Part shown: positions 6,010 through 22,304 of the stretch, one piece after another
How positions within the stretch are numbered: position 1 is the first letter of the stretch
How the letters are laid out: each line of letters opens with the position of its first letter
Virus record (IMG/VR): IMGVR_UViG_2563366895_000003
Span: 1-23,534 of that record
Strand: one strand, 5' to 3'
Length of the DNA: 23,534 nucleotides
Source: a virus
Taxonomy: Duplodnaviria > Heunggongvirae > Uroviricota > Caudoviricetes
The notes under the pieces: generated by a model
The model's input: the letters and a program-made list of their open reading frames with translations, nothing else
What the model was told of the DNA's origin: nothing
Databases searched by the model: none
Position numbers and translations under genes: made by a program

Positions 6010-6230
6010 CACCATGACTCCGCCTTTACAGGTAAACCATCACGACCGAGGAAGACTTTAATCATGCAGTCAGTAATGCATGTTTTTGTGGTCAGGTTAC
6101 GAATATAAAGTTTTCGCTTTTTAATATTGTTTGCCGAGGCAATATATGTCCGGCCGTTATGAAGAATATAATCACCAGGAGTCACACACTGACGAGGTAT
6201 TTCATCAGTTCCGAAGTGATGAGCAATCAT
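6009..6230 (-). CDS. kilR: Cell-division inhibitor KilR, 73 aa
   Basis: Translation [46 protein letters not shown]; GGAGAT Shine-Dalgarno 4 nt upstream of the chosen ATG. Confidence 0.8.
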
Positions 6231-6321
6231 AATTATCTCCATTTTCACAAATGAACTTTGTTGATGCGGTGCCTGGTGCCTCCAGGTGACGTTAACCAGT
6301 TAACAATTAACGCCGGATACC

Positions 6322-6660
6322 GTGGCTGATGTCATGAGTGCTCTACACGCTAGCTATGACGACGGGCAATCAGGCGAAAAATTTTTGCGGGAACTGTGCC
6401 AAGTGGATCTGCTGGTTCTTGATGAAATTGGCATTCAGCGCGAGACAAAAAACGAGCAGGTGGTGCTGCACCAGATTGTTGATCGCCGGACAGCGTCGAT
6501 GCGCAGCGTGGGGATGCTGACAAACCTGAACTATGAGGCCATGAAAACATTGCTCGGCGAGAGGATTATGGATCGCATGACCATGAACGGCGGGCGATGG
6601 GTGAATTTTAACTGGGAGAGCTGGCGTCCGAATGTCGTCCAGCTAGGAATTGCGAAGTGA
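6322..6660 (+). pseudogene. 5'-truncated DnaC-like helicase-loader remnant (C-terminal ~112 aa only)
   Basis: The ORF begins inside the AAA+ domain: a Walker-B-like DLLVLDEIG sits at residues ~29-37 and no Walker A/P-loop precedes it. No plausible start or Shine-Dalgarno. Confidence 0.6.
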
Positions 6661-6682: not shown

Positions 6683-7444
6683 ATGGAAACCGTTTTTGAT
6701 GCACTGAAAGCAATGGGAAAAGCCACGTCGGTAGAACTGGCTGCGCGACTTGATATCAGTCGTGAAGAAGTGCTGAACGAGCTGTGGGAACTGAAAAAGG
6801 CTGGATTCGTTGATAAAAGCGTATACACCTGGCGTGTGGCCGATAACAACGTTCAGCAGGAACATCCAGTGCCGGAAGAACAGCCGGAAGAAATCGCCAC
6901 AGCAACAGTGACGAAAATATCGGAGTGCGATTTAACCGCGACGATTGAACAACGTGGTCCACTAACTGCGGATGAACTGGCTACGTTGTTCGGTACCACA
7001 TCACGCAAAGTGGCTTCAACGCTGGCAATGGCAATCAGCAAGGGGCGTCTGATTCGCGTAAATCAGAACGGTAAATTTCGTTACTGCATGCCGGGCGATA
7101 ATTTACCAGCAGAACCGAAAGCTGCATTGGTAACGAAAAATGATGGTAAAGCCTTTCCTCAGCCAGCCGGTGCTGCGTTACCAGTACAGGAAGCGGCAAC
7201 ACAGGAAGATATTAAAACAGAAACTGTGGCGGACATTGTGCAGTCGCTGCCATCGTTTACTGAAACGCAAGCGGATGACTTGGTTTTACCATCGCTGCAT
7301 ATAGCAAACCGCGAACTGCGTCGGGCGAAAAATCATGTCCAGAAGTGGGAGCGTGTCTGCGCCGCGCTGCGGGAGCTGAACAAGCACCGGGATATTGTTC
7401 GACAGATTGTCGATTCCTCCAGTCGTATTGTGTCGGAAAAGTGA
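6683..7444 (+). CDS. Tandem winged-helix (wHTH) protein, 253 aa, function unknown
   Basis: GGGAGG Shine-Dalgarno before the ATG at 6683. Two internally similar segments ([30 protein letters not shown] and [31 protein letters not shown]) each resemble a wHTH recognition unit. Confidence 0.65.
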
Positions 7445-7459
7445 TTGCCGGAGGCGCTT

Positions 7460-7882
7460 ATGGCAAAAGTTTTTACACAGGAAGAGCGTGAAAAAATTAA
7501 GGAGCAGGTTGTTGAGCTGGTACGCCAGAGTGGGCGCGAGACGTTAAGGCAACTGGAGGCCAAGACAGGGGCGACAAGATATCTGATGAACATTCTTGCC
7601 AGAGAGTTGGTTGCCAGTGGCGATGTATACAACTCTGGCTATGGGTTATTTACCTCTGAACAGGCTCGTAAGGACTGGAATAACGCCCGCAAAAAACTAT
7701 CCAGGGCAAAGGTGAAAAAAACGGTTGTGGTTGATCCTGACCTTATCTGGTCATTACCAGACGGAGAAATACGCCGATATGACGGGCGTCTGAATATAAT
7801 CTGTAGCGAGTGCCGTAAGAGCGAAGTTATGAAGCGTGTACTGATGTTTTATCGAGGAAGTATCCAGGAATTTATTCGGTAA
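7460..7882 (+). CDS. Hypothetical prophage protein, 140 aa
   Basis: GGAGG Shine-Dalgarno 5 nt before the ATG at 7460; follows the previous gene after a 15-nt gap; no recognisable motif. Confidence 0.6.
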   Translation: MAKVFTQEEREKIKEQVVELVRQSGRETLRQLEAKTGATRYLMNILARELVASGDVYNSGYGLFTSEQARKDWNNARKKLSRAKVKKTVVVDPDLIWSLPDGEIRRYDGRLNIICSECRKSEVMKRVLMFYRGSIQEFIR

Positions 7883-8018
7883 GCAAAATCAAAATGTAAT
7901 CGCTCAAGTTTAAGTTGGTGTATCTACGGCGCAGAGCCATCGCCTCATCTGGCACTGCGCTAAAATCAAATTTAGTTCCACTCTTTATTTCGTATCTGCT
8001 AAAACGCTACATAAAATT

Positions 8019-8291
8019 TTACTTTTTTAAAGAATAAGGGAATATGTGCACCATATTGGAGGCTAGTGGATATATTCCTATGCTACGAGTTGTCTTTTTT
8101 AGTTGATCTATGCTTGCTTCTTTATCGGGAGCCCGGCCTCCCCACACTGTAACTCCCTCAGGTATATCGATTGGGCGACTTTTGTTTTCATCTGTGATTT
8201 CAATCGTTTCCCCATTATTAAGCGTAATAATCAACGATGACACGTCCAGGTGTTGTGTATTCCCATTTTTATTTTTAATGTCTATTTTCAT
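8019..8291 (-). CDS. Hypothetical small protein, 90 aa, AT-rich
   Basis: ORF only; no convincing Shine-Dalgarno. Composition differs from neighbours. May be spurious. Confidence 0.3.
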   Translation of the reverse strand: MKIDIKNKNGNTQHLDVSSLIITLNNGETIEITDENKSRPIDIPEGVTVWGGRAPDKEASIDQLKKTTRSIGIYPLASNMVHIFPYSLKK

Positions 8292-8561
8292 GGCTATTTC
8301 ATTATATGTTATCTGTGCTGGAGTAATAAGTTTACAGTATTAAGAAGCATTTTGACGAAACAATCAACTGACTTATCAGCTAAGGTGGCATTGTAATGCG
8401 ATCTGATTGGTATCATCAGGACGCTGTTCAAAAAAGGGGGATTAGTTGATCTTGAAATCTTGCTCAAAATGTGTAGCCTCTCGTTTAACTGCCAACTTTT
8501 TGGGGCAGTACACTCTGATGCTACACAACTTGCAAGTTTCATTACCCCGACGTAAACATTT

Positions 8562-9230
8562 ATGACAGTTGCTGATTTCAAACGTCCTAAGTTGGAGCTC
8601 CCAAACGGGGCAAACAAACTACTATTACACTCTTGTTGTGCACCATGTTCCGGTGAAGTGATGGAGGCTCTTCAGGCCTCAGGAATCGACTACACCATCT
8701 TCTTCTATAATCCGAACATTCATCCTCAGAAAGAGTATTTGATTCGTAAGAATGAGAATATTCGATTTGCTGAACAACATGGTGTACCGTTTATCGATGC
8801 TGATTACGACACTGACAACTGGTTTGAGCGAGCCAAAGGAATGGAATGGGAGCCCGAACGTGGGAGGCGTTGTACTATGTGTTTTGACATGCGTTTTGAA
8901 CGGACGGCGCTGTACGCCGCTGAAAATGGTTTCAGTGTGATCAGCAGTTCACTGGGCATTTCACGCTGGAAAAATATGCAGCAGGTTAACGACAGCGGAC
9001 GGCGAGCTGTCGCACATTATCCGGGCATGGTGTACTGGGATTATAACTGGCGCAAGCAGGGAGGCTCGTCCCGCATGATTGAAATCAGCAAACGCGAACA
9101 ATTCTATCAGCAGGAATATTGTGGTTGCGTGTATTCACTTCGCGATACCAATTTACACCGCAAATCCCAGGGACGCCCTCTTATCAAAATTGGTCAACTC
9201 CACTACGGTAAAGAAGAAGGGCAGGAATGA
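8562..9230 (+). CDS. queH: DUF208/QueH-like protein (putative epoxyqueuosine reductase), 222 aa
   Basis: N-terminal [11 protein letters not shown] plus [10 protein letters not shown] and YCGCVYS motifs, which I recall as the conserved Cys signature of the QueH/DUF208 family. Single-gene unit with its own flanking non-coding DNA. Confidence 0.65.
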
Positions 9231-9770
9231 TTTTTACATTACGTCAACAGAGTGTCACAACGTTTCTATATATGGTATGCCGACCGTAATTTTCGAATCA
9301 TCATGACTAATAGGCAGGTCACCTATGCCAGCAATGACCTGCTCATCTTGAAATTAGCAGAAATCTTGTAGCTATGATGTAGCTCAAAATAGTTTTTCAT
9401 TCTTTTACCTGATGTCTGTTCCTGGCTGAAAACAGACTGTATTATTTGATTACGCACCACTGACACTTGTGTATTGAAGTAGTGAGTACAAAGCCACATA
9501 TTTATCAGTGTATGTATACGTCAAAAACAGAAGATTGTTGTGCTGGTTCTGAAGTGTGCGTTAGCAATAGTGGCTGTGGTGGCAATTTATTGCCTTGTTG
9601 TTGTTCTTATGGAGCGACTTTCTGATTGATTACATACTGGCTAAAAAAAAGCGTTTGCCTGGCTTATCTTTGTCCGGCAAGGTGCGCTCATTAATCTGAA
9701 GTAAATTTATTTCTTAAGTATTCAGATTACTTCTTATGGTCGAAGTCTCCTGGCAATGTAGAACCAAAAT

Positions 9771-9813
9771 ATTTACAAAAACGAGACCCGTCGAGGATAG
9801 CTCTGCCGGGTCT
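9771..9813 (-). terminator. Intrinsic terminator candidate for the YeaR-like gene
   Basis: 7-bp stem AGACCCG/CGGGTCT with a 16-nt loop; on the minus strand it is followed by CGTTTTTGTAAAT. Confidence 0.45.
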
Positions 9814-9842
9814 GATTGTTAAAGTATTTTTAATATGATCAT

Positions 9843-10181
9843 CTATTTTTTGGTGCTATAAACTTTTTCGCCTGAGAAGTCTGGAGCGACCCAAAAGTTA
9901 ATATTAAACTGAGCATCATCGCTTAGTTCAACACGGTGCCAGTATTGTGGTGGGCTTGTTGCAAAAGAGCCAGCATTAATAACTACTTTTATCTCTGGTT
10001 CAGTAGTATTCTCATCAGCAAAACCATAATATGTTACAGTGCCTTCCATTACGCACAACTGCCCAAAAACACCTGCTGCTGTATTATGATGTGTTAATAA
10101 CGCTGAAGGTACGTTCTCTTTTGTGAAGAACGGAGTTGAGCGTTTGATTACCCAATCTTTAGGAATTCTCTTGTGTGTCAT
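9843..10181 (-). CDS. YeaR/DUF1971-like small protein, 112 aa (tentative family call)
   Basis: ATG at 10181 with GGAGGTG 5 nt upstream. The family call rests on my recollection of YeaR-type proteins and is tentative. Confidence 0.55.
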   Translation of the reverse strand: MTHKRIPKDWVIKRSTPFFTKENVPSALLTHHNTAAGVFGQLCVMEGTVTYYGFADENTTEPEIKVVINAGSFATSPPQYWHRVELSDDAQFNINFWVAPDFSGEKVYSTKK

Positions 10182-11052
10182 AACCACCTCCTATAAAACA
10201 TGTATTATAAATGCACCTTTTGAGGGGTTATGTCAAGCTCTTATGAAACACATAATTGATATGTTGATTAGAGGAGAAGATAGAATAAATATGGTTGTTT
10301 TTCGTATAACTACTTGTTTTGCTTTTGGTTTATGCATTCTATGTGTTAGGAATAAGTTATTAAAGCTTAATCAAGAAATCTCGATGTATTCCACATAGAT
10401 TACTGTTACTGAACCTTATTGTGTGCATTAGTTGTGTTCTGAAATTTCAGCTTAATTATTTATGATATATTTTTTAACGATAAATGTTTTCCCAGGTAAA
10501 AGACAGTTGGGAATAAGATAAGTAATATATCATTAATCTTGATTATTCCCAGGGTACCTTTACTGTGCATATAAATAAATCATATATGCATCAAATAATG
10601 TAAAGGCATCCTTTTAGATATGTCTTATCAAATGTTAATGACTTGAGTGGGAAACATGATTCCAGCAACTTATCATGTGGCTACTTTATAAAAATAATGC
10701 CCATATAAAACAACAAGCAAAAAGGATTACGGATAAAAAAGGAGCGAGATGTGCAAACTTGTTATTTTCCATGTTTAACCACCTTAAATAATTGATGATG
10801 ACGGGATGATTGCATCTGTAATGCTTTTATTGAAATGTTATGATAAAAAAGAACTTTTTCATAACATTAAAATGTAATTTAGCTAATCGTTTTTAATAAT
10901 AAGTGTCGTATTTCTATCCTTGTACCAGCTATTTGATATGTAGTGTTTGTTCATGCTATGTGGGGCTTTACACCATAGCCAGTTTATTTATACTTTATTC
11001 GTCAGCCTGAACAACTGGCATCTGCTGCACTGCGCCATAGAGAGATTGAGAA

Positions 11053-11652
11053 ATGGCGCATATACAACTGGTCAAACAAACTTCTTCTGGTTTACTTCTC
11101 CCGGCGACGCCGGAGAGTTGTGATTTTCTGCATCAAATTAAAATAGGCGAGTGGATACACGCTGATTTTAAGCGTGTGCGTAACTACGCATTCCACAAGC
11201 GTTTTTTCAAACTCCTGCAACTGGGATTCGATTACTGGACTCCGGTCGGTGGGGCGATCACGCCTCGCGAACGAGAACTGCTGTCTGGTTTCGTTGATTA
11301 CCTGTGCGAATCAGTTGGTCGGGAACACACGCCAGCCCTGAGTGATGCCGCAGAGCAATATCTGAATACAGTTGCGACACGCAGAACCCGGGATACGGCA
11401 TTGCTAAAGTCGTTTGAGGCTTTTCGCGAGTGGGTAACCATTCAGGCTGGATTTTACACCGAACATTTTTATCCGGACGGTAGCCATGGGCGTCGGGCGA
11501 AATCCATCGCTTTTGCGAATATGGACGAAACCGAGTTTCAGCAGGTTTATAAATCTGTTCTGAATGTGCTGTGGAACTGGATTCTGTTCCGTAAATTTTC
11601 CTCTCTGGAACAAGTCGAAAATGTGGCCGCGCAGCTGCTGGAGTTTGCGTAA
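11053..11652 (+). CDS. Lambdoid Nin-region protein (DUF1367-like), 199 aa
   Basis: ORF upstream of, and stop/start-overlapping (TAATG), the next gene; typical Nin-region position ahead of the Q candidate. Confidence 0.65.
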   Translation: MAHIQLVKQTSSGLLLPATPESCDFLHQIKIGEWIHADFKRVRNYAFHKRFFKLLQLGFDYWTPVGGAITPRERELLSGFVDYLCESVGREHTPALSDAAEQYLNTVATRRTRDTALLKSFEAFREWVTIQAGFYTEHFYPDGSHGRRAKSIAFANMDETEFQQVYKSVLNVLWNWILFRKFSSLEQVENVAAQLLEFA

Positions 11653-11942
11653 TGGTGGATTTACGTAAAGCGGCGCGGGGGCAGATGTGCACCGTCAGAA
11701 TTCCTGGCTACTGCAATCACGATCCGGAAACGTCTGTGCTGGCGCATTACCGACTGGCGGGAACGTGCGGAACAGCGACAAAACCACACGATATGCAGGC
11801 GGCGATTGCCTGTAGCTCATGCCACGATCTAATCGACGGGCGGGTAAAAACCAGCGATTACACCAAAGAAGAATTACGCCTGATGCATGCAGAAGGTGTT
11901 TTTCGCACACAAGAAATCTGGAGAAAGGAGGGATATTTGTGA
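11652..11942 (+). CDS. DUF1364/YbcO-like Cys-rich putative nuclease, 96 aa
   Basis: Cys motifs CTVRIPGYCNHD and CSSCHDLIDGR; position between a Nin protein and the Q candidate, as for ybcO in DLP12-type prophages. Confidence 0.65.
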   Translation: MVDLRKAARGQMCTVRIPGYCNHDPETSVLAHYRLAGTCGTATKPHDMQAAIACSSCHDLIDGRVKTSDYTKEELRLMHAEGVFRTQEIWRKEGYL

Positions 11943-12481
11943 TTTACCCAACGAATACAGGAAAAAGCGGAGAACACCTTCGTCTCGCCACGCTGGAAAG
12001 TGTCTGGATTCAGGGCAAACTGCGTATGTGGGGGCGCTGGTCGTATATTGGCGGTGGCAGGTCAGGAAATATGTTCAATCAGTTGTTGGCATCCCAAAAA
12101 TTGACGAAAACAGCCATCAATGAAGCCCTGCGCAGAATGAAAAAAGCGGGAATAGAGAAAGCTGAGCTGGAAGCGTTTTTGAGAGAGATGATCAACGGCA
12201 AGCAAAAGAGCTGGCTGGCGCATTGTACTGATGCAGAGGCGTTATGTATTGATCGAGTCATAAGTGAGGTGCTGGCAGAGCATCCAGGATTGATTAGCGT
12301 CCTTCGGCAACGGTATGAGGGGCGGGGAATGACCAAACGCAAAATGGCTGAATTGCTAAATGATGCACACCCAGAGTGGTGTTTTAGCACATGCGAAAAG
12401 CGAATTGCTAATTGGTTGGCCGTTGCTGAGTATGCGCTATACATTCCCATGCGAGAATCATTCGCTCAAAAAACGGCTTGA
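11939..12481 (+). CDS. Late-gene antiterminator Q candidate (positional), ~180 aa, GTG start
   Basis: GGAGGG Shine-Dalgarno 6 nt before a GTG that overlaps the preceding stop (GTGA). Last gene before a strong terminator, tRNAs and the lysis cassette. I did not recognise a Q-type zinc-finger motif, so the call is by position only. Confidence 0.45.
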   Translation: MIYPTNTGKSGEHLRLATLESVWIQGKLRMWGRWSYIGGGRSGNMFNQLLASQKLTKTAINEALRRMKKAGIEKAELEAFLREMINGKQKSWLAHCTDAEALCIDRVISEVLAEHPGLISVLRQRYEGRGMTKRKMAELLNDAHPEWCFSTCEKRIANWLAVAEYALYIPMRESFAQKTA

Positions 12482-12566
12482 TTTTTTACGCATAAACTGC
12501 TTCAATTTTGCTACGCTTCGCAAAGCTGTATCGCGTGGCGAATCAAGCGCAATTAAACTTTAATAG

Positions 12567-12597
12567 AACCCGCATCGAGCGGGTTTTGTTGTTTTTG
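12567..12597 (+). terminator. Strong rho-independent terminator (tR'-like position)
   Basis: Stem AACCCGC, loop ATCGA, stem GCGGGTT, then TTTTGTTGTTTTTG. Confidence 0.7.
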
Positions 12598-12833
12598 TGG
12601 GGTGATATAAGAAACGACATTTAATAATTGCCTTCAAAATAAATTTGTTTATATATTGTCGCGTATATTTTAAATGAAGGTGAAATGTTCACATAAAATA
12701 AAAATACATAAATAAATTTACATAACTTGACGAAAAGTGTTGTTGCGATTGGAATATTAAATCGTATTATCGAAAACGGTTCTGAGGGGGAACTCTTCTT
12801 TGATCGGTGATATCGCTCCCCTGAAGAACCAAT

Positions 12834-12909
<76 letters not shown>

Positions 12910-12912
12910 TAT

Positions 12913-12987
<75 letters not shown>

Positions 12988-13352
12988 GCATTTGAAACAA
13001 GCCTTATTGTATTGCGGCACTGGCGTATTTTTTATTACGTGGGAGCAGGTTGTTTTGGAAAAGCATTCTGTTCTCTGGCTATGATTTGAGGCCAGGTGTA
13101 GCCTCAGTGCTGATTTTTTTACGACAGCAGAATGGTGCATTATCGGTGGAGATTTTGTATTTCCTGGCAGGGTCGGTGATGCATCATTCTGGTGTTGTAA
13201 AAGCACCACAGAGGTGTTCCTCAGTGCGAGGGTAGTTTATATAGTGGTTTAGCGGGGAATCACAATATTTGTTGTAGGGACAGATATTTCGGGAGGCACC
13301 CGACACCTCGATTTTTATTACAATTAAAATGATTTATCTTATACATTGACCA

Positions 13353-13378
13353 ACCGCCATATCTGGCGGTTTTTTTTA
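13353..13378 (+). terminator. Rho-independent terminator after the tRNA pair
   Basis: Stem ACCGCCA, loop TATC, stem TGGCGGT, followed by T8. Confidence 0.6.
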
Positions 13379-13765
13379 TACCTGCATCAGACAAAAAAAG
13401 ACACGAGCATCCAGGAATACTCGTGGGACAACGTCCGTTAGATAGCAATTTGCGAGAGGGTGAAAAGTAGCGCGGTCGTCGGATTAAGACCGCGGGACAA
13501 AGTCCATGAAGAATAATAAGTATTGGCCCCCTTCTGGGGACATGTTCATACTACTAAGCTTCAGAAGTGGTTTAAATCATCAAATTAACCTTAATTTTCG
13601 ATAAGTCTTATTTCATTTCTTTGCGCCACATCTGGCGCGCATCAAATAACGCCACGCAAAGGGCATATGCGGATGCCGGTGCTTTTGACGGGGTGTTTTT
13701 TACGGGCCGCTGGTGGCCATTTTTTGTTTCCGTTACACAGCGCCCGCATCTGCGAGGTGGGGGTT

Positions 13766-13981
13766 ATGAAATCCATGGATAAGTTAACAACGGGTGTCGC
13801 CTATGGCACCTCCGCAGGCAGTGCTGGCTACTGGTTTTTACAGCTGCTCGATAAAGTCACGCCCTCACAGTGGGCAGCAATAGGTGTGCTGGGTAGCTTG
13901 GTATTTGGCCTGCTGACGTACCTGACAAACCTTTATTTCAAGATTAAAGAAGATAAGCGCAAGGCTGCGAGAGGTGAATAA
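13766..13981 (+). CDS. Class II holin (phage 21 S-like pinholin), 71 aa
   Basis: GAGGTGGGGG Shine-Dalgarno; dual-start motif MKSM; translation [50 protein letters not shown] ... KRKAARGE resembles S21 as I recall it. Stop overlaps the next start (TAATG). Confidence 0.85.
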
Positions 13982-20099: not shown

Positions 20100-20888
20100 T
20101 TAAGCATCACGTATTGCCAATCTGATTTTTGACTGATACCAATTGGGGCCTTCTGCAATTATTTCTTCCTCAACATGCATGATGGGATGCATTTCAATTT
20201 CAGAGTTTTTGACTTTCAGATCTAGTCCATGTTTTTTTGAAATTTGTAAAACTTCATTTTTGAAATCCTTATCTGCGAAAGGTGAAATCCTTATTTCTTC
20301 CAACAGATTATTAAGAGATACAGGGACTAGTTTTCCCTTTACAGGTGGAGTGTTAAAGGTATTCTCTTGAAAAATAGCTCTAAACTCTTTTTCGTATTCG
20401 AAAGATGGTCTCTTGTTAAAGAATACATCTGATTCTGGATTGTATTGTTTTATCCAGAAATTTTTGACGTATTTTACGTGTTTTAATTGTAGTTTGTTTA
20501 GATTATTATTTTCAAGTTGGCTTTGGAGGTTTTTTTTCTTTGATTTTATGACAACGCCTTTAGCGGGGTTTTTACAATACAGCTTCCACATAGCTTCAGA
20601 TTCATGTTCGTTACAATGCCAGCAACTTATATATGTCCTCTCGCTTATTTCCTTAAGTGTCTTTAAATTGAATGCCATGAAAGGATCTAAGTCCATGCCG
20701 GCACCATAAGTAGCGCATAGTTTTTCCTGTGTCTCAATGAATTTTTTATAGCCAGTATGTCCCCAAGCAAATTCACCTTCGAACGGATCTTCAAAATTTT
20801 TTGCTGAGCAAAAAAATAAAGCATTTTGTTCGAGTAACATAGAGAATTTCTCTATGTCAAGGTATCGCCATATATACTCAGTGTGCAT
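20100..20888 (-). CDS. DUF2971-family protein, 262 aa, very AT-rich
   Basis: AAGGAG Shine-Dalgarno 5 nt before the ATG at 20888. N-terminal IWRYLDIEKFSMLLEQNALFFCSAKNFEDPFEGEF, then ISCWHCNEHESEAMWKLYC and LKHVKYV, matching the DUF2971 pattern as I recall it. Confidence 0.7.
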   Translation of the reverse strand: MHTEYIWRYLDIEKFSMLLEQNALFFCSAKNFEDPFEGEFAWGHTGYKKFIETQEKLCATYGAGMDLDPFMAFNLKTLKEISERTYISCWHCNEHESEAMWKLYCKNPAKGVVIKSKKKNLQSQLENNNLNKLQLKHVKYVKNFWIKQYNPESDVFFNKRPSFEYEKEFRAIFQENTFNTPPVKGKLVPVSLNNLLEEIRISPFADKDFKNEVLQISKKHGLDLKVKNSEIEMHPIMHVEEEIIAEGPNWYQSKIRLAIRDA

Positions 20889-21017
20889 GATAGCTCCTTG
20901 CAATATAACTATTTCTATCTGTTCATTTGTACTTAAAAAGGATTGAGTAGCCTGAACAGTTCTATCCGTAAATATACCAGATAGAAGAGTTGTACAATAA
21001 CAAATCCTCCGTATAAG

Positions 21018-21056
21018 AACCAGCCATAATAGTCTGGTTCTTAAGGTTTTTTTTGT
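21018..21056 (+). other. Stem-loop GAACCAG-N10-CTGGTTC followed by a plus-strand T8 run, between the two cassette genes
   Basis: Read directly. Terminator-like for plus-strand (antisense) transcription only; on the coding strand it is preceded by an A-run, not followed by a U-run. Confidence 0.4.
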
Positions 21057-21101
21057 TCTAGGGGGGGTTAACCTACGATTCGTCCCCATATCGACGATAA
21101 A

Positions 21102-22304
21102 TCAGGCCTGTACCAACGCTTCTGTTTCTGTGAGTGAAATCTGATAGCGTTTTACTGCCTCAGCAAAGGCGTGCGCGGCATCTGCATTTGATACCATATA
21201 TTCTTCAGTTACCCCTGTTTGAGAATGGAAAGTAATATTTCCATAAATGCAAATAGGGATTTGGTAGTTATCTTTAAAACGACGGTCTGGTGAGCCATTC
21301 TTATTCGTTTTCGCCCATGTATAACCATCTATGCGTGAGTCACTGGGAACACCTTCTTCCTCATGGAATCTTAGATATTCTGAACTAATTTGTAATTCGC
21401 GTAAATCAATCAGAGCGAATGCTCCATCAGCTCGTGGTATGACTGCAACTCCAGGATAAAGCAAAATATCGTCTCCATTCACATTTTCAAACCTCATCGC
21501 ACGCCCTGTAAATTGAATGAGATCCGTTGAACTAAAATCAAAGGTAACTGGGTGACGATTAACAGACCGGGTTGCTAATGTTCTTTCAGCAAACTGGTCT
21601 GTAGCTTTATCTGCAGTAATATCCCATTTTTTGACACTCGATTTTAACATATCAAATGCATGGACCATCGCTGCATATGCGCGCTGTGAAGCATCACTGC
21701 TCTCGAATGTTATGGCTATTTTTGTGCTGTCTTCCCATGAAACTAGGCGAGATATCTCAGCTTGGGTTAGGGGGAGTAGTGTCTCAAGTTCTGCGATGCG
21801 TCGTTTGTAAAACCAACGGAATAGACTTGATTTGCGTCGAGCCAACTCGCTTTTTTGTTTTGATTCTTCGGCAAGAGCCTCTTGAAGATCTGCTTTTATT
21901 TCTGCTCTTTGTTCTCGTGCTTTAGCAATCAAATCTCGTAAAGGTAAAAGGGAGGTACTTGTAAGGACTTCTACCGAAGCGCTGGATATTTCATTCATGC
22001 CAGCTACAGGCATATATATTTTAGCGTTCGATGGTGTATTTTCTGGAGATGACCCAGACCCCAAATGAGGTTCTGTAGGGGCTGGATTTAATGGATTGGT
22101 AACTGAGTATCCATCATCATAGGGCAAGGTAGGTGTAGTATAAGATAAGCCTGTGCCCGGTAATCCGACAGTTGCTCTAACCCCTTTTTTACCAACATTG
22201 ACAGTTGCGCCAGGCACGCCAATGCTTGCACTTATTCCACGCTTGCCAATGTTGAGTCGAACGCCAGGAAATAGAGTAAAGGTTTGTCTGAAACGAAGAG
22301 ACAT
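21102..22304 (-). CDS. DUF4236 N-terminal-domain protein with coiled-coil middle and unassigned C-terminal domain, 400 aa
   Basis: N-terminal FTLFPGVRLNIGKRGISASIGVPGATVNVGKKGVRATVGLPGTGLSYTT is the Gly/basic DUF4236-type repeat pattern as I recall it; a coiled-coil-like stretch follows; C-terminal ~200 aa unrecognised. Confidence 0.7.
   Translation of the reverse strand: MSLRFRQTFTLFPGVRLNIGKRGISASIGVPGATVNVGKKGVRATVGLPGTGLSYTTPTLPYDDGYSVTNPLNPAPTEPHLGSGSSPENTPSNAKIYMPVAGMNEISSASVEVLTSTSLLPLRDLIAKAREQRAEIKADLQEALAEESKQKSELARRKSSLFRWFYKRRIAELETLLPLTQAEISRLVSWEDSTKIAITFESSDASQRAYAAMVHAFDMLKSSVKKWDITADKATDQFAERTLATRSVNRHPVTFDFSSTDLIQFTGRAMRFENVNGDDILLYPGVAVIPRADGAFALIDLRELQISSEYLRFHEEEGVPSDSRIDGYTWAKTNKNGSPDRRFKDNYQIPICIYGNITFHSQTGVTEEYMVSNADAAHAFAEAVKRYQISLTETEALVQA

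Follow-up and report, generated by a model that had tools for sequence, protein, structure and literature searches.

The region between positions 8019 and 10181 of the window (the whole 23,534-nt stretch analysed here) is likely a mosaic in which four or more accessory cassettes, or "morons", each acquired on its own, occupy the junction between replication genes and late regulators in a defective lambdoid prophage. The window as a whole represents this prophage, which is of the Rac type and sits at ttcA in E. coli. Positions 7800–11100 are 100% identical to E. coli strain WL164, whose prophage at ttcA contains intR, xisR, ralR, recET and kilR. Most of the replication genes, the immunity region and PR are gone from this prophage, in which kilR lies directly against a truncated DnaC-like gene; the same element contains terminase and tail pseudogenes. 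To the left the island is flanked by the truncated DnaC-like gene, DUF1627 and DUF977, and to the right by DUF1367, YbcO/DUF1364 and a DUF1133 Q-like antiterminator. These neighbours put it at the position of the nin region, as the preliminary description had it (between the replication and Nin modules), and no member of the NinB family is present at that position in the window.

The three genes described there are all intact in the open reading frame list and alternate in strand: a 90-aa orphan gene (8019–8291, minus), a QueH gene (8562–9230, plus) and a DUF1971 gene (9843–10181, minus). The AT-rich character of the region was likewise borne out, G+C content being 37–46% over most of 8019–10181, below that of the surroundings; the replication and nin-like modules have 48–53%, a local peak of 51% occurs inside QueH, and the 871-bp gap at 10182–11052 drops to 28–30%. 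The proposal that every gene has its own non-coding flank held only in part, since the 612-bp spacer separating QueH and DUF1971 contains a conserved 29-aa ORF (9540–9629, plus). A scan of 7400–13800 against Rfam by E-value gave no match within the island; outside it there were two tRNAs and a sub-threshold STnc100-like match.

The evidence for independent acquisition comes from the distribution of the genes. Among 5,426 complete E. coli genomes, the 90-aa cassette is present in 48, QueH in 1,047 (19%) and DUF1971 in 457, a roughly 20-fold difference in frequency, and only 43 genomes have all three. Related prophages tell the same story: QueH is found without DUF1971 in EC958, E4 and phage HannyBb, and DUF1971 without QueH in 30COLEC and phage vB_EcoS-666R9, so that each of the three genes varies independently. 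Moreover, the closest relatives of each gene come from different chromosomal loci in different lineages. These frequencies favour accumulated cargo, as first suggested, over capture of one contiguous host chromosomal segment containing all three genes, for instance by aberrant excision or recombination. Such a capture would be in keeping with the existence of close chromosomal, non-prophage relatives for each gene. However, these relatives reside in separate loci: DUF1971 in dsbB-ycgN or norVW contexts, queH beside purL or tmcA, and the 90-aa gene on its own. Co-occurrence of the trio in non-prophage chromosomes had been named beforehand as the observation that would argue for a captured segment, and it was found at no locus examined. 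In a set of 80 species-level DUF1971 loci, neither QueH nor the 90-aa gene was found within 6 kb of the DUF1971 orthologue at any of the 79 non-prophage loci; the other two genes were not near chromosomal queH at the three loci examined, and neither QueH nor DUF1971 was nearby at the loci examined for 90-aa homologues. Together with the spread in frequency, this makes capture of a single segment extremely improbable.

The mosaic reading places the island among the morons of lambdoid phages, a concept reportedly introduced by Juhala and Hendrix, of which lambda bor and lom and HK97 gp15 are examples, as are DLP12 ybcL and ybcM, which occupy the same genomic position as the island. Like these, the cassettes are extra genes between neighbours of related phages (DUF977 directly precedes QueH in EC958 and E4), differ in composition from the phage backbone, are often on the reverse strand and vary independently among relatives. 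Lambdoid morons may possess their own promoter or operator and terminator. At DUF1971 there are an operator and a −10 hexamer, and a hairpin followed by a U tail lies downstream. QueH points the same way as the early operon and has no recognisable promoter of its own. The promoter scan, in which sigma-70-like sites were fewer than expected by chance, gave no convincing promoter for either QueH or the 90-aa gene. The classic definition of a moron includes expression in the lysogen; the likeness drawn here is one of sequence and arrangement.

QueH (222 aa) belongs to the cobalamin-independent, Fe-S type of epoxyqueuosine reductase (DUF208), a function that Zallot et al. reportedly assigned to this family in 2017. 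The QueH-like identity originally proposed is supported by a match to Pfam PF02677 (E 1.1e-65; 221.5 bits against a cutoff of 23.5), in which residues 20–194 cover profile positions 1–174 of 175, and by a match to PHROGs phrog_3217 (8.8e-134). All six of C24/C25, C104/C107 and C186/C188 align with cysteines of Thermotoga maritima QueH (7lc5), supplying the CC, CxxC and CGC motifs of the Fe-S cluster and adjacent iron; structures of the T. maritima enzyme are 7lc5 and 9dco. Unlike T. maritima QueH, the prophage enzyme has Cys at the Asp position of the CCAPD motif and is extended by about 25 aa at its C-terminus. By domain match and cysteine pattern, it is predicted to be a bona fide cobalamin-independent epoxyqueuosine reductase. 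It is 79–86% identical to QueH of Erwinia, Providencia and Photorhabdus, and the three enterobacterial queH loci examined are housekeeping contexts, with queH adjoining purL or tmcA in Erwinia and Providencia. From such a chromosomal queH of other Enterobacterales the prophage gene would appear to have been recruited, and it runs in line with the early-right operon of the phage. Alleles from different prophages give dN/dS of 0.03–0.06 at dS of 0.27–0.46 and, judged by these ratios, are under strong purifying selection.

If expressed, QueH would need no vitamin B12 to turn oQ34 of tRNA Asp, Asn, His and Tyr into Q34. QueG depends on cobalamin and QueH on iron, and the coexistence of the two in Staphylococcus aureus has been read as cofactor-dependent redundancy (PMC13443448). 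The prophage gene is set apart from QueH elsewhere by sitting in a species that already has QueG, whose B12-dependent activity it would duplicate. A literature search returned nothing relevant on prophage QueH.

In all prophages examined QueH follows DUF977 on the strand of the early-right operon. Only about 48 bp of conserved sequence lie upstream of it, with no recognisable promoter, and the promoter scan found no sigma-70-like site on the plus strand of 8292–8561. Given this orientation, QueH need not be an independent transcription unit, as the preliminary description had proposed for the three genes; the deletions described above account for the want of an identifiable upstream phage promoter in this prophage. 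Downstream, a hairpin with a weak U tail (9313–9343, plus; −13.6 kcal/mol) is a possible terminator; with a z of −1.5 it is not significant by itself, and it is kept in the HannyBb and E4 copies. The invariable placement behind DUF977, the lack of a promoter and the recognition of QueH as a phage family in PHROGs would also fit a role for QueH, and perhaps for the 29-aa peptide, in the lytic programme, in which QueH, expressed from the early-right operon, would finish Q34 on host tRNAs and favour decoding of phage NAU and NAC codons. We know of no established difference between oQ and Q in decoding, and the phage-borne tRNAs, Thr-UGU and Gly-UCC, are not Q substrates. A lytic role is thus conceivable but doubtful.

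The 90-aa gene (WP_000686865.1) is the rarest of the cassettes. It is bracketed by an imperfect 25-nt direct repeat on the plus strand (7889–7913 and 8464–8488; 72% identity, spacing 575). In EC958 the cassette is absent and QueH comes directly after DUF977; the EC958 spacer between these two genes aligns to the window on both sides of the cassette. We infer that a cassette of about 575 bp with a leftward 90-aa gene was inserted into the DUF977–QueH spacer. The protein belongs to a small family that has no Pfam match, and its homologues occur singly, in chromosomal, plasmid or IS surroundings that are unrelated to one another; a remote one has ArdC and partition genes nearby on a plasmid-like contig. 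AF2 modelling on 11 close homologues was unusable (pLDDT 49) and became confident with an alignment of 26 sequences. A fold search with the confident model found no match in the PDB or BFVD. Giant adhesins with LapA repeats, which the 90-aa profile also matched, were set aside as a beta-strand repeat likeness that spans about 25 residues and not whole-domain homology. The product is probably a cytoplasmic all-beta protein that is carried around by mobile elements.

The DUF1971 gene encodes a 112-aa TehB-N/YeaR-like cupin, with the ATG start used by PGAP. Its membership of DUF1971 is clear (PF09313, E 2.7e-26; 91.8 bits against a cutoff of 23.1), as the preliminary description had it. Within the family it is not an orthologue of E. 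coli YeaR: the match to PDB 3dl3, the "TehB" of Vibrio fischeri (E 2.6e-59; about 80% identity as read off the alignment), is far stronger than that to E. coli YeaR, 3bb6 (E 3.2e-25), and identity is 40–43% to the E. coli chromosomal copies and about 41–45% to YeaR. Orthologues are flanked by dsbB and ycgN in Klebsiella, Citrobacter and Kluyvera and follow norVW in Vibrionaceae. The prophage protein shares with YeaR, the product of the NsrR/NarL-regulated yeaR-yoaG operon, the DUF1971 cupin-like domain and an NsrR-type operator in the promoter, but it is nearer to 3dl3 and the dsbB-ycgN gene of Kluyvera, Klebsiella and Citrobacter (~80%), and the open reading frame list shows no yoaG partner downstream. 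These comparisons make the gene found at the dsbB-ycgN locus in other Enterobacteriaceae its orthologue, with yeaR in a paralogous lineage.

DNA homology to the chromosomal orthologues is limited to 9840–10223. Judging from these boundaries, DUF1971 was captured as a unit of about 380 bp complete with an NsrR-type operator; the donor was probably the dsbB-ycgN locus of a Kluyvera- or Leclercia-like enterobacterium, from which operator, Shine-Dalgarno sequence and coding sequence would have come together. In the prophage the captured unit is followed by a probable intrinsic terminator, a G+C-rich hairpin with a U-rich tail directly 3′ of the stop codon (9777–9817, minus; −15.4 kcal/mol, z −2.6). 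Further along, a hairpin with a U8 run (9641–9689, minus; −11.9 kcal/mol) resembles a second stop for leftward transcription; its energy is not better than that of shuffled sequences, and it is common to prophages that have DUF1971 only. An sRNA between these two minus-strand terminators (9690–9780) was considered and rejected: flank divergence there is comparable to or above the synonymous divergence of the coding sequences, so that no constraint is seen.

The operator is an 11-1-11 inverted repeat, AAGGTGCATTTATAATACATGTT (10197–10219, minus), 15 nt 5′ of the ATG, which overlaps a perfect TATAAT (−10) at 10204–10209. A perfect TTGACA hexamer, invariant in 11/11 prophage variants, lies 21 nt 5′ of the TATAAT (10231–10236, minus), a spacing too long for a standard sigma-70 promoter. 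The DUF1971 promoter region thus contains an inverted repeat like AAGATGYATTTNAAATRCATCTT, as in the NsrR regulon. Experimentally based NsrR sites include those of ygbA, AAGGTGCATTTATATTACAACTT, and ytfE, AAGATGCATTTAAAATGCATCTT (PMC5320621 Table 4), and E. coli yeaR is a known NsrR- and NO-responsive gene (PMC5320621). Compared with the ytfE-type palindrome, AAGGTGCATTTATAATACATGTT has three mismatches and is the sole site in the window with six or fewer; a search for the full palindrome with a fixed-base consensus and three mismatches missed it, and a degenerate consensus found it. Across species, a box with 0–4 mismatches is present 15–27 nt 5′ of the start codon at 53/80 DUF1971 loci, a level of conservation reached by 0.1% of shuffled upstream regions. 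The loci that lack the box are mostly of the Vibrionaceae type, in which DUF1971 follows norV-norW on the same strand. In the prophages it is kept in all 11 variants with 1–5 mismatches and is among the more variable stretches between copies, which is compatible with relaxed constraint. Since the unit has an NsrR-type operator over the −10 region, DUF1971 is probably under NsrR control and NO-inducible; in a lysogen, host NsrR would probably keep it repressed until nitric oxide relieves the repression, with no need of phage regulators.

Upstream of this operator is an AT-rich spacer (10220–11052; 28–30% G+C). Within 10182–11052 the left ~500 bp occur only with DUF1971, and the right ~370 bp (10685–11052) co-occur with DUF1367 in many more prophages. 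A promoter-like TTTACA-16-TATACT is found on the plus strand at 10967–10994.

The 29-aa ORF, MLVLKCALAIVAVVAIYCLVVVLMERLSD, starts with GTG and is intact in 120/120 copies (the window and the fetched loci, mostly viral contigs). Most copies have AGGAGG or AGGAGA 5–6 nt 5′ of the GTG, and that of the window has a weakened form (AGAAGA). Of 17 variable columns, counted outside the search pattern from the variability string, 11 fall at third codon positions, a third-position bias. The block with this ORF is found in 1,902 of the 5,426 E. coli genomes (35%). Among the 40 matches listed none has a RefSeq feature under the block; some GenBank records label the ORF "membrane protein". A Cys-rich ORF of 52 or 37 aa in frame 0 (9467–9625) was rejected, as substitutions hit codon positions one and two of that frame and relatives do not preserve it together with a start codon; the genuine ORF is the one in the +1 frame. 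The 29-aa ORF, preceded by a Shine-Dalgarno sequence of its own, is likely a separate mobile mini-module, and its hydrophobic product is probably a single-pass membrane peptide. No similarity to known families was found by sequence, and a literature search with the peptide sequences gave nothing relevant. In Qin-type prophages the ORF is directly upstream of hokD. Like HokD, Ldr, Ibs and TisB, type I toxins or small membrane proteins, the peptide has one hydrophobic helix and is prophage-borne; unlike them, it has an acidic C-terminus, and it shows no family similarity. No antisense promoter or terminator overlaps it, the minus-strand terminator ending ~10 nt past the stop codon.

Type I toxins are typically small hydrophobic peptides, and the interval from the replication genes to Q is a known site of variable cargo in lambdoid prophages. 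The island could accordingly be pictured as a hotspot of anti-phage defence or anti-defence, with the 90-aa and 29-aa products acting as superinfection-exclusion, abortive-infection or anti-restriction factors, a picture that the ArdC neighbourhood of the remote 90-aa homologue and the proximity to hokD would suit. Against this, none of the four products (90-aa protein, QueH, DUF1971, 29-aa peptide) matched PADLOC at E ≤ 0.1, the Rfam scan of the island detected neither an antisense RNA nor a known RNA family, and the 90-aa fold is without a structural match in the PDB or BFVD. We regard a dedicated defence island as quite improbable.

Lastly, the genes might have no function and simply be drifting as the cryptic prophage decays, in an arrangement of no consequence to this host. 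The defects of the prophage (the immunity and replication deletion and the pseudogenes), the failure of the scan to find a promoter for QueH, the weakened Shine-Dalgarno sequence of the 29-aa ORF and the near-clonal state of the trio (at least 99% identity across the 43 genomes) are what drift would lead one to expect. However, all four ORFs are intact and the QueH ratios are low across prophages; the nucleotide identity of DUF1971 is 95% or higher in 457/457 genomes, its flanks being more divergent; and the 90-aa family retains full length at 61–76% identity across genera. Drift is therefore unlikely. As far as such comparisons go, they show selection acting in the gene pool, and not necessarily in this particular host.

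In summary, the island is of an ordinary class: morons fill a site of variable cargo in a lambdoid prophage, and prophage morons are well known. The DUF1971 cassette is an example of a moron captured along with the host operator that probably controls it. It also strengthens the link between NO stress and the DUF1971 family, which is uncharacterised, through the NsrR box at most enterobacterial loci and the norVW linkage of the Vibrionaceae type. The 29-aa membrane ORF is very common, yet systematically absent from RefSeq annotation. QueH, present in prophages of 19% of complete E. coli genomes, would offer a simple case of a prophage that alters the tRNA modification capacity of its host under scarce cobalamin. 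A bolder joint reading, which we offer as speculative and improbable, is that prophage QueH frees about one fifth of E. coli strains from B12 for queuosine, that the DUF1971 cassette is wired to the NO response of the host, and that the 29-aa and 90-aa products are new toxin or anti-defence factors. If true, Rac- and Qin-type prophages would reprogramme both the tRNA modification and the nitrosative-stress physiology of gut E. coli.

The island at 8019–10181 comprises a 90-aa ORF (8019–8291, −) with no Pfam family, a QueH gene (8562–9230, +; PF02677, E 1.1e-65) and a DUF1971 gene (9843–10181, −; PF09313, E 2.7e-26) whose ATG start lies behind GGAGG. The ORF listing and Pfam searches thus bear out the coordinates and strands of the preliminary description, and PGAP already annotates all three. 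G+C content across the island is mostly 37–46%, with a local peak of 51% within QueH; the flanking phage modules are at ~50%, and the 871-bp gap ahead of the next gene drops to 28–30%. Positions 7800–11100 match the E. coli WL164 chromosome at 100% identity and belong there to a Rac-type prophage at ttcA. The island there is preceded, in order, by intR, xisR, ralR, recT, recE, kilR, a truncated DnaC-like pseudogene, DUF1627 and DUF977, and to its right lie DUF1367, DUF1364/YbcO, a DUF1133 Q-like antiterminator, tRNA-Thr and tRNA-Gly, lysis genes, trkG and structural-gene remnants. This prophage is defective, being without its immunity region, PR and most replication genes. At 6230–6660 of the window, kilR (−) is followed within ~90 bp by a DnaC-like gene without its N-terminus; racR, ydaS and ydaT (the whole Rac immunity region), PR and the O-like gene are all deleted at this junction, and the rightward operon is therefore without its phage promoter. 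Rfam also gives a sub-threshold match to the STnc100 sRNA at 13184–13381, past the tRNAs and ahead of the lysis genes (27.4 bits, gathering score 47, E 0.005). The prophage's right end carries two further non-phage-looking genes, DUF2971 and DUF4236 (20100–22304, −), just ahead of sitD, which may mark a second cargo site.

The trio had been described as accumulated cargo between the replication and Nin modules. Each island piece was used as its own query against 5,426 complete E. coli genomes. The 90-aa cassette (7883–8561) was found in 48, DUF1971 in 457 and QueH in 1,047, with at least 80% of the whole stretch present in 43. Copies at least 99% identical came from 43 records for each gene, matching the 43 genomes with the whole stretch, which fits a single near-clonal variant. 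Moreover, the comparison with related prophages that had been proposed as a check yielded alternative combinations. In EC958 and E4, as in phage HannyBb, DUF977 is followed directly by QueH and then hokD, without the 90-aa gene or DUF1971, and strain 30COLEC and phage vB_EcoS-666R9 carry DUF1971, the AT-rich gap and DUF1367 without QueH. Alternatively, the prophage could have captured one contiguous host block, in which case the trio might be found together in a non-prophage chromosome. This was examined from the side of each gene. Among 80 species-level loci encoding the DUF1971 orthologue, 79 are non-prophage, and none of these 79 has either QueH or the 90-aa gene within 6 kb; the sole exception is a Shigella prophage, which has a 29-aa ORF and DUF1367 instead. 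Chromosomal queH in Photorhabdus, Providencia and Erwinia has housekeeping neighbours (e.g. purL or tmcA/purC). The 90-aa gene's homologues in Citrobacter, Enterobacter and others stand alone in unrelated surroundings, with remoter relatives on plasmid-like or IS-rich contigs. The trio was thus not encountered outside a prophage in the DUF1971, queH and 90-aa loci examined. Therefore, block capture is not supported, and the differing genome counts, alternative combinations and locus checks support mosaic accumulation, that is, moron cargo of a well-known kind at a variable slot of lambdoid prophages.

The 612-bp spacer between QueH and DUF1971 had been taken as non-coding flank, which did not hold. 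Rightward matches from QueH and leftward matches from DUF1971 overlap on 9470–9641, a block present in 1,902 genomes. Among the 40 matches listed, none has a RefSeq feature over this block, barring the BL21(DE3) DUF977 gene that overlaps a match edge. In that genome (NC_012971.2; locus L214, 3206–3982) DUF977 is annotated as 120 aa, not ~140, and runs into the start of the block; with QueH missing and hokD next in line, the locus looks like a QueH deletion from an E4-like arrangement. Substitutions in the alignment of the block avoid one reading frame, encoding a 29-aa peptide (9540–9629, +; GTG start at 9540): MLVLKCALAIVAVVAIYCLVVVLMERLSD. This ORF is intact in 120/120 copies (the window and fetched loci, mostly viral contigs), and AGGAGG or AGGAGA lies 5–6 nt upstream of the start in most, the window copy having a weakened AGAAGA. 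Outside the part fixed by the search pattern, third codon positions account for 11 of 17 variable columns in a count made on the variability string. The ORF's frame has 18 synonymous and 12 non-synonymous distinct codon variants; for the two remaining frames the corresponding ratios are 7:21 and 4:25. In Qin-type prophages the ORF lies just upstream of hokD. It is a fourth gene, overlooked earlier. Several GenBank records, including REL606, label it "membrane protein" or "conserved hypothetical protein"; it is therefore not new to databases, though uncharacterised.

The 90-aa ORF is also a real gene, with full length and 36 invariant residues kept across 11 sequences of 61–99% identity. A profile search of 1.84 billion representatives returned only 24 proteins at E ≤1e-10, and the matches include ~90-aa single-domain and tandem two-domain forms. 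Partial matches to LapA-type adhesin repeats were regarded as local beta-strand resemblance and rejected. Relative to EC958, the cassette is an interruption of the DUF977–QueH spacer, and imperfect 25-nt repeats of this spacer flank it (7889–7913 and 8464–8488). Our best guess, held with low confidence, is that the protein is a mobile-element accessory factor.

The DUF1971 protein is closest to PDB 3dl3 (E 2.6e-59, ~80% identity as read from the printed alignment) and more distant from E. coli YeaR (3bb6, E 3.2e-25). As it also shares just 40–43% identity with E. coli chromosomal copies, derivation from yeaR was rejected. Chromosomal orthologues at 75–83% identity lie between dsbB and ycgN at 29 loci (Klebsiella, Citrobacter, Kluyvera, Leclercia and others). 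At 19 Vibrionaceae-type loci (L189, L204 and 17 more) norV and norW lie in the region ~2.7 kb upstream of the DUF1971 match, and DUF1971 comes immediately after them in the same orientation, an unexploited functional link between this family and NO reduction. Nucleotide homology between the prophage gene and its orthologues is confined to 9840–10223, i.e. the CDS, Shine-Dalgarno sequence and operator, and therefore the gene was captured as a minimal regulated unit. In the gap beyond (10182–11052), the left ~500 bp occur only alongside DUF1971, and the right ~370 bp (10685–11052) precede DUF1367 in many other prophages at 74–78% identity. The right part, which travels with DUF1367, holds a promoter-like TTTACA-16-TATACT (10967–10994) and an AT-rich inverted repeat with 19-nt arms (10829–10873; ~−10 kcal/mol, z −2.7); Rfam gave no RNA family match in the gap.

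The predicted operator, AAGGTGCATTTATAATACATGTT (10197–10219, −), lies 15 nt before the DUF1971 ATG. It forms an 11-1-11 palindrome that differs from the ytfE-type NsrR site by 3 mismatches, and no other position in the 23.5-kb window comes within 6. A box with 0–4 mismatches occurs 15–27 nt ahead of the start codon at 53/80 DUF1971 loci; among shuffled upstream regions, just 0.1% get down to 4 mismatches. Its position is fixed, with 1–5 mismatches, in 11/11 sequence variants (23 prophage copies). A CFT073 study combining ChIP-seq with a PSWM lists closely similar sites for ytfE, hcp and ygbA, and the known NsrR target yeaR responds to nitrate/NO conditions with strong induction (PMC5320621). 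Past the DUF1971 stop codon comes a G+C-rich hairpin with a U tail (−15.4 kcal/mol, z −2.6). We infer that DUF1971 would be NsrR-repressed, NO-induced and independent of phage regulators. However, the TTGACA and TATAAT hexamers, both perfect, are separated by 21 nt, and the box is among the more variable stretches between prophage copies.

The entire domain of prophage QueH can be aligned with the T. maritima enzyme (7lc5), all six cysteines being in register. Its nearest relatives outside E. coli prophages (79–86% identity) are in Erwinia, Providencia, Proteus, Photorhabdus, Gibbsiella and others. Prophage alleles show dN/dS of 0.03–0.06 at dS 0.27–0.46; selection thus maintains the enzyme across the prophage gene pool. 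Downstream, a small hairpin (9380–9400), AGCTA...TAGCT in the window and AGCCAT...ATGGCT in HannyBb and E4, keeps its pairing by compensatory changes as read from the alignment, which hints at a structured RNA element. The two phage-borne tRNAs downstream of the Q-like antiterminator (12834–12987), Thr (UGU) and Gly (UCC), are not queuosine substrates. E. coli is not known to make cobalamin de novo. The enzyme used by E. coli is QueG (PMC9508795); QueG is cobalamin-dependent and QueH iron-dependent, and their coexistence in S. aureus has been read as cofactor-dependent redundancy (PMC13443448). Prophage QueH would supply a B12-independent route for the last queuosine-synthesis step, which we consider the most economical mechanism. 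The weakness of this reading lies in expression: QueH runs in the same direction as the early-right operon, but PR is lost from this prophage, only ~48 bp upstream of the gene are conserved between prophage types, and a promoter scan detected none for QueH.

In sum, the analysis adds figures for the mosaicism, an overlooked 29-aa gene, a predicted NsrR operator captured with DUF1971, and a fold-orphan 90-aa family. Their interest would be greater if the small proteins prove to be new toxins or anti-defence factors, or if prophage QueH proves to make queuosine formation in E. coli independent of B12.
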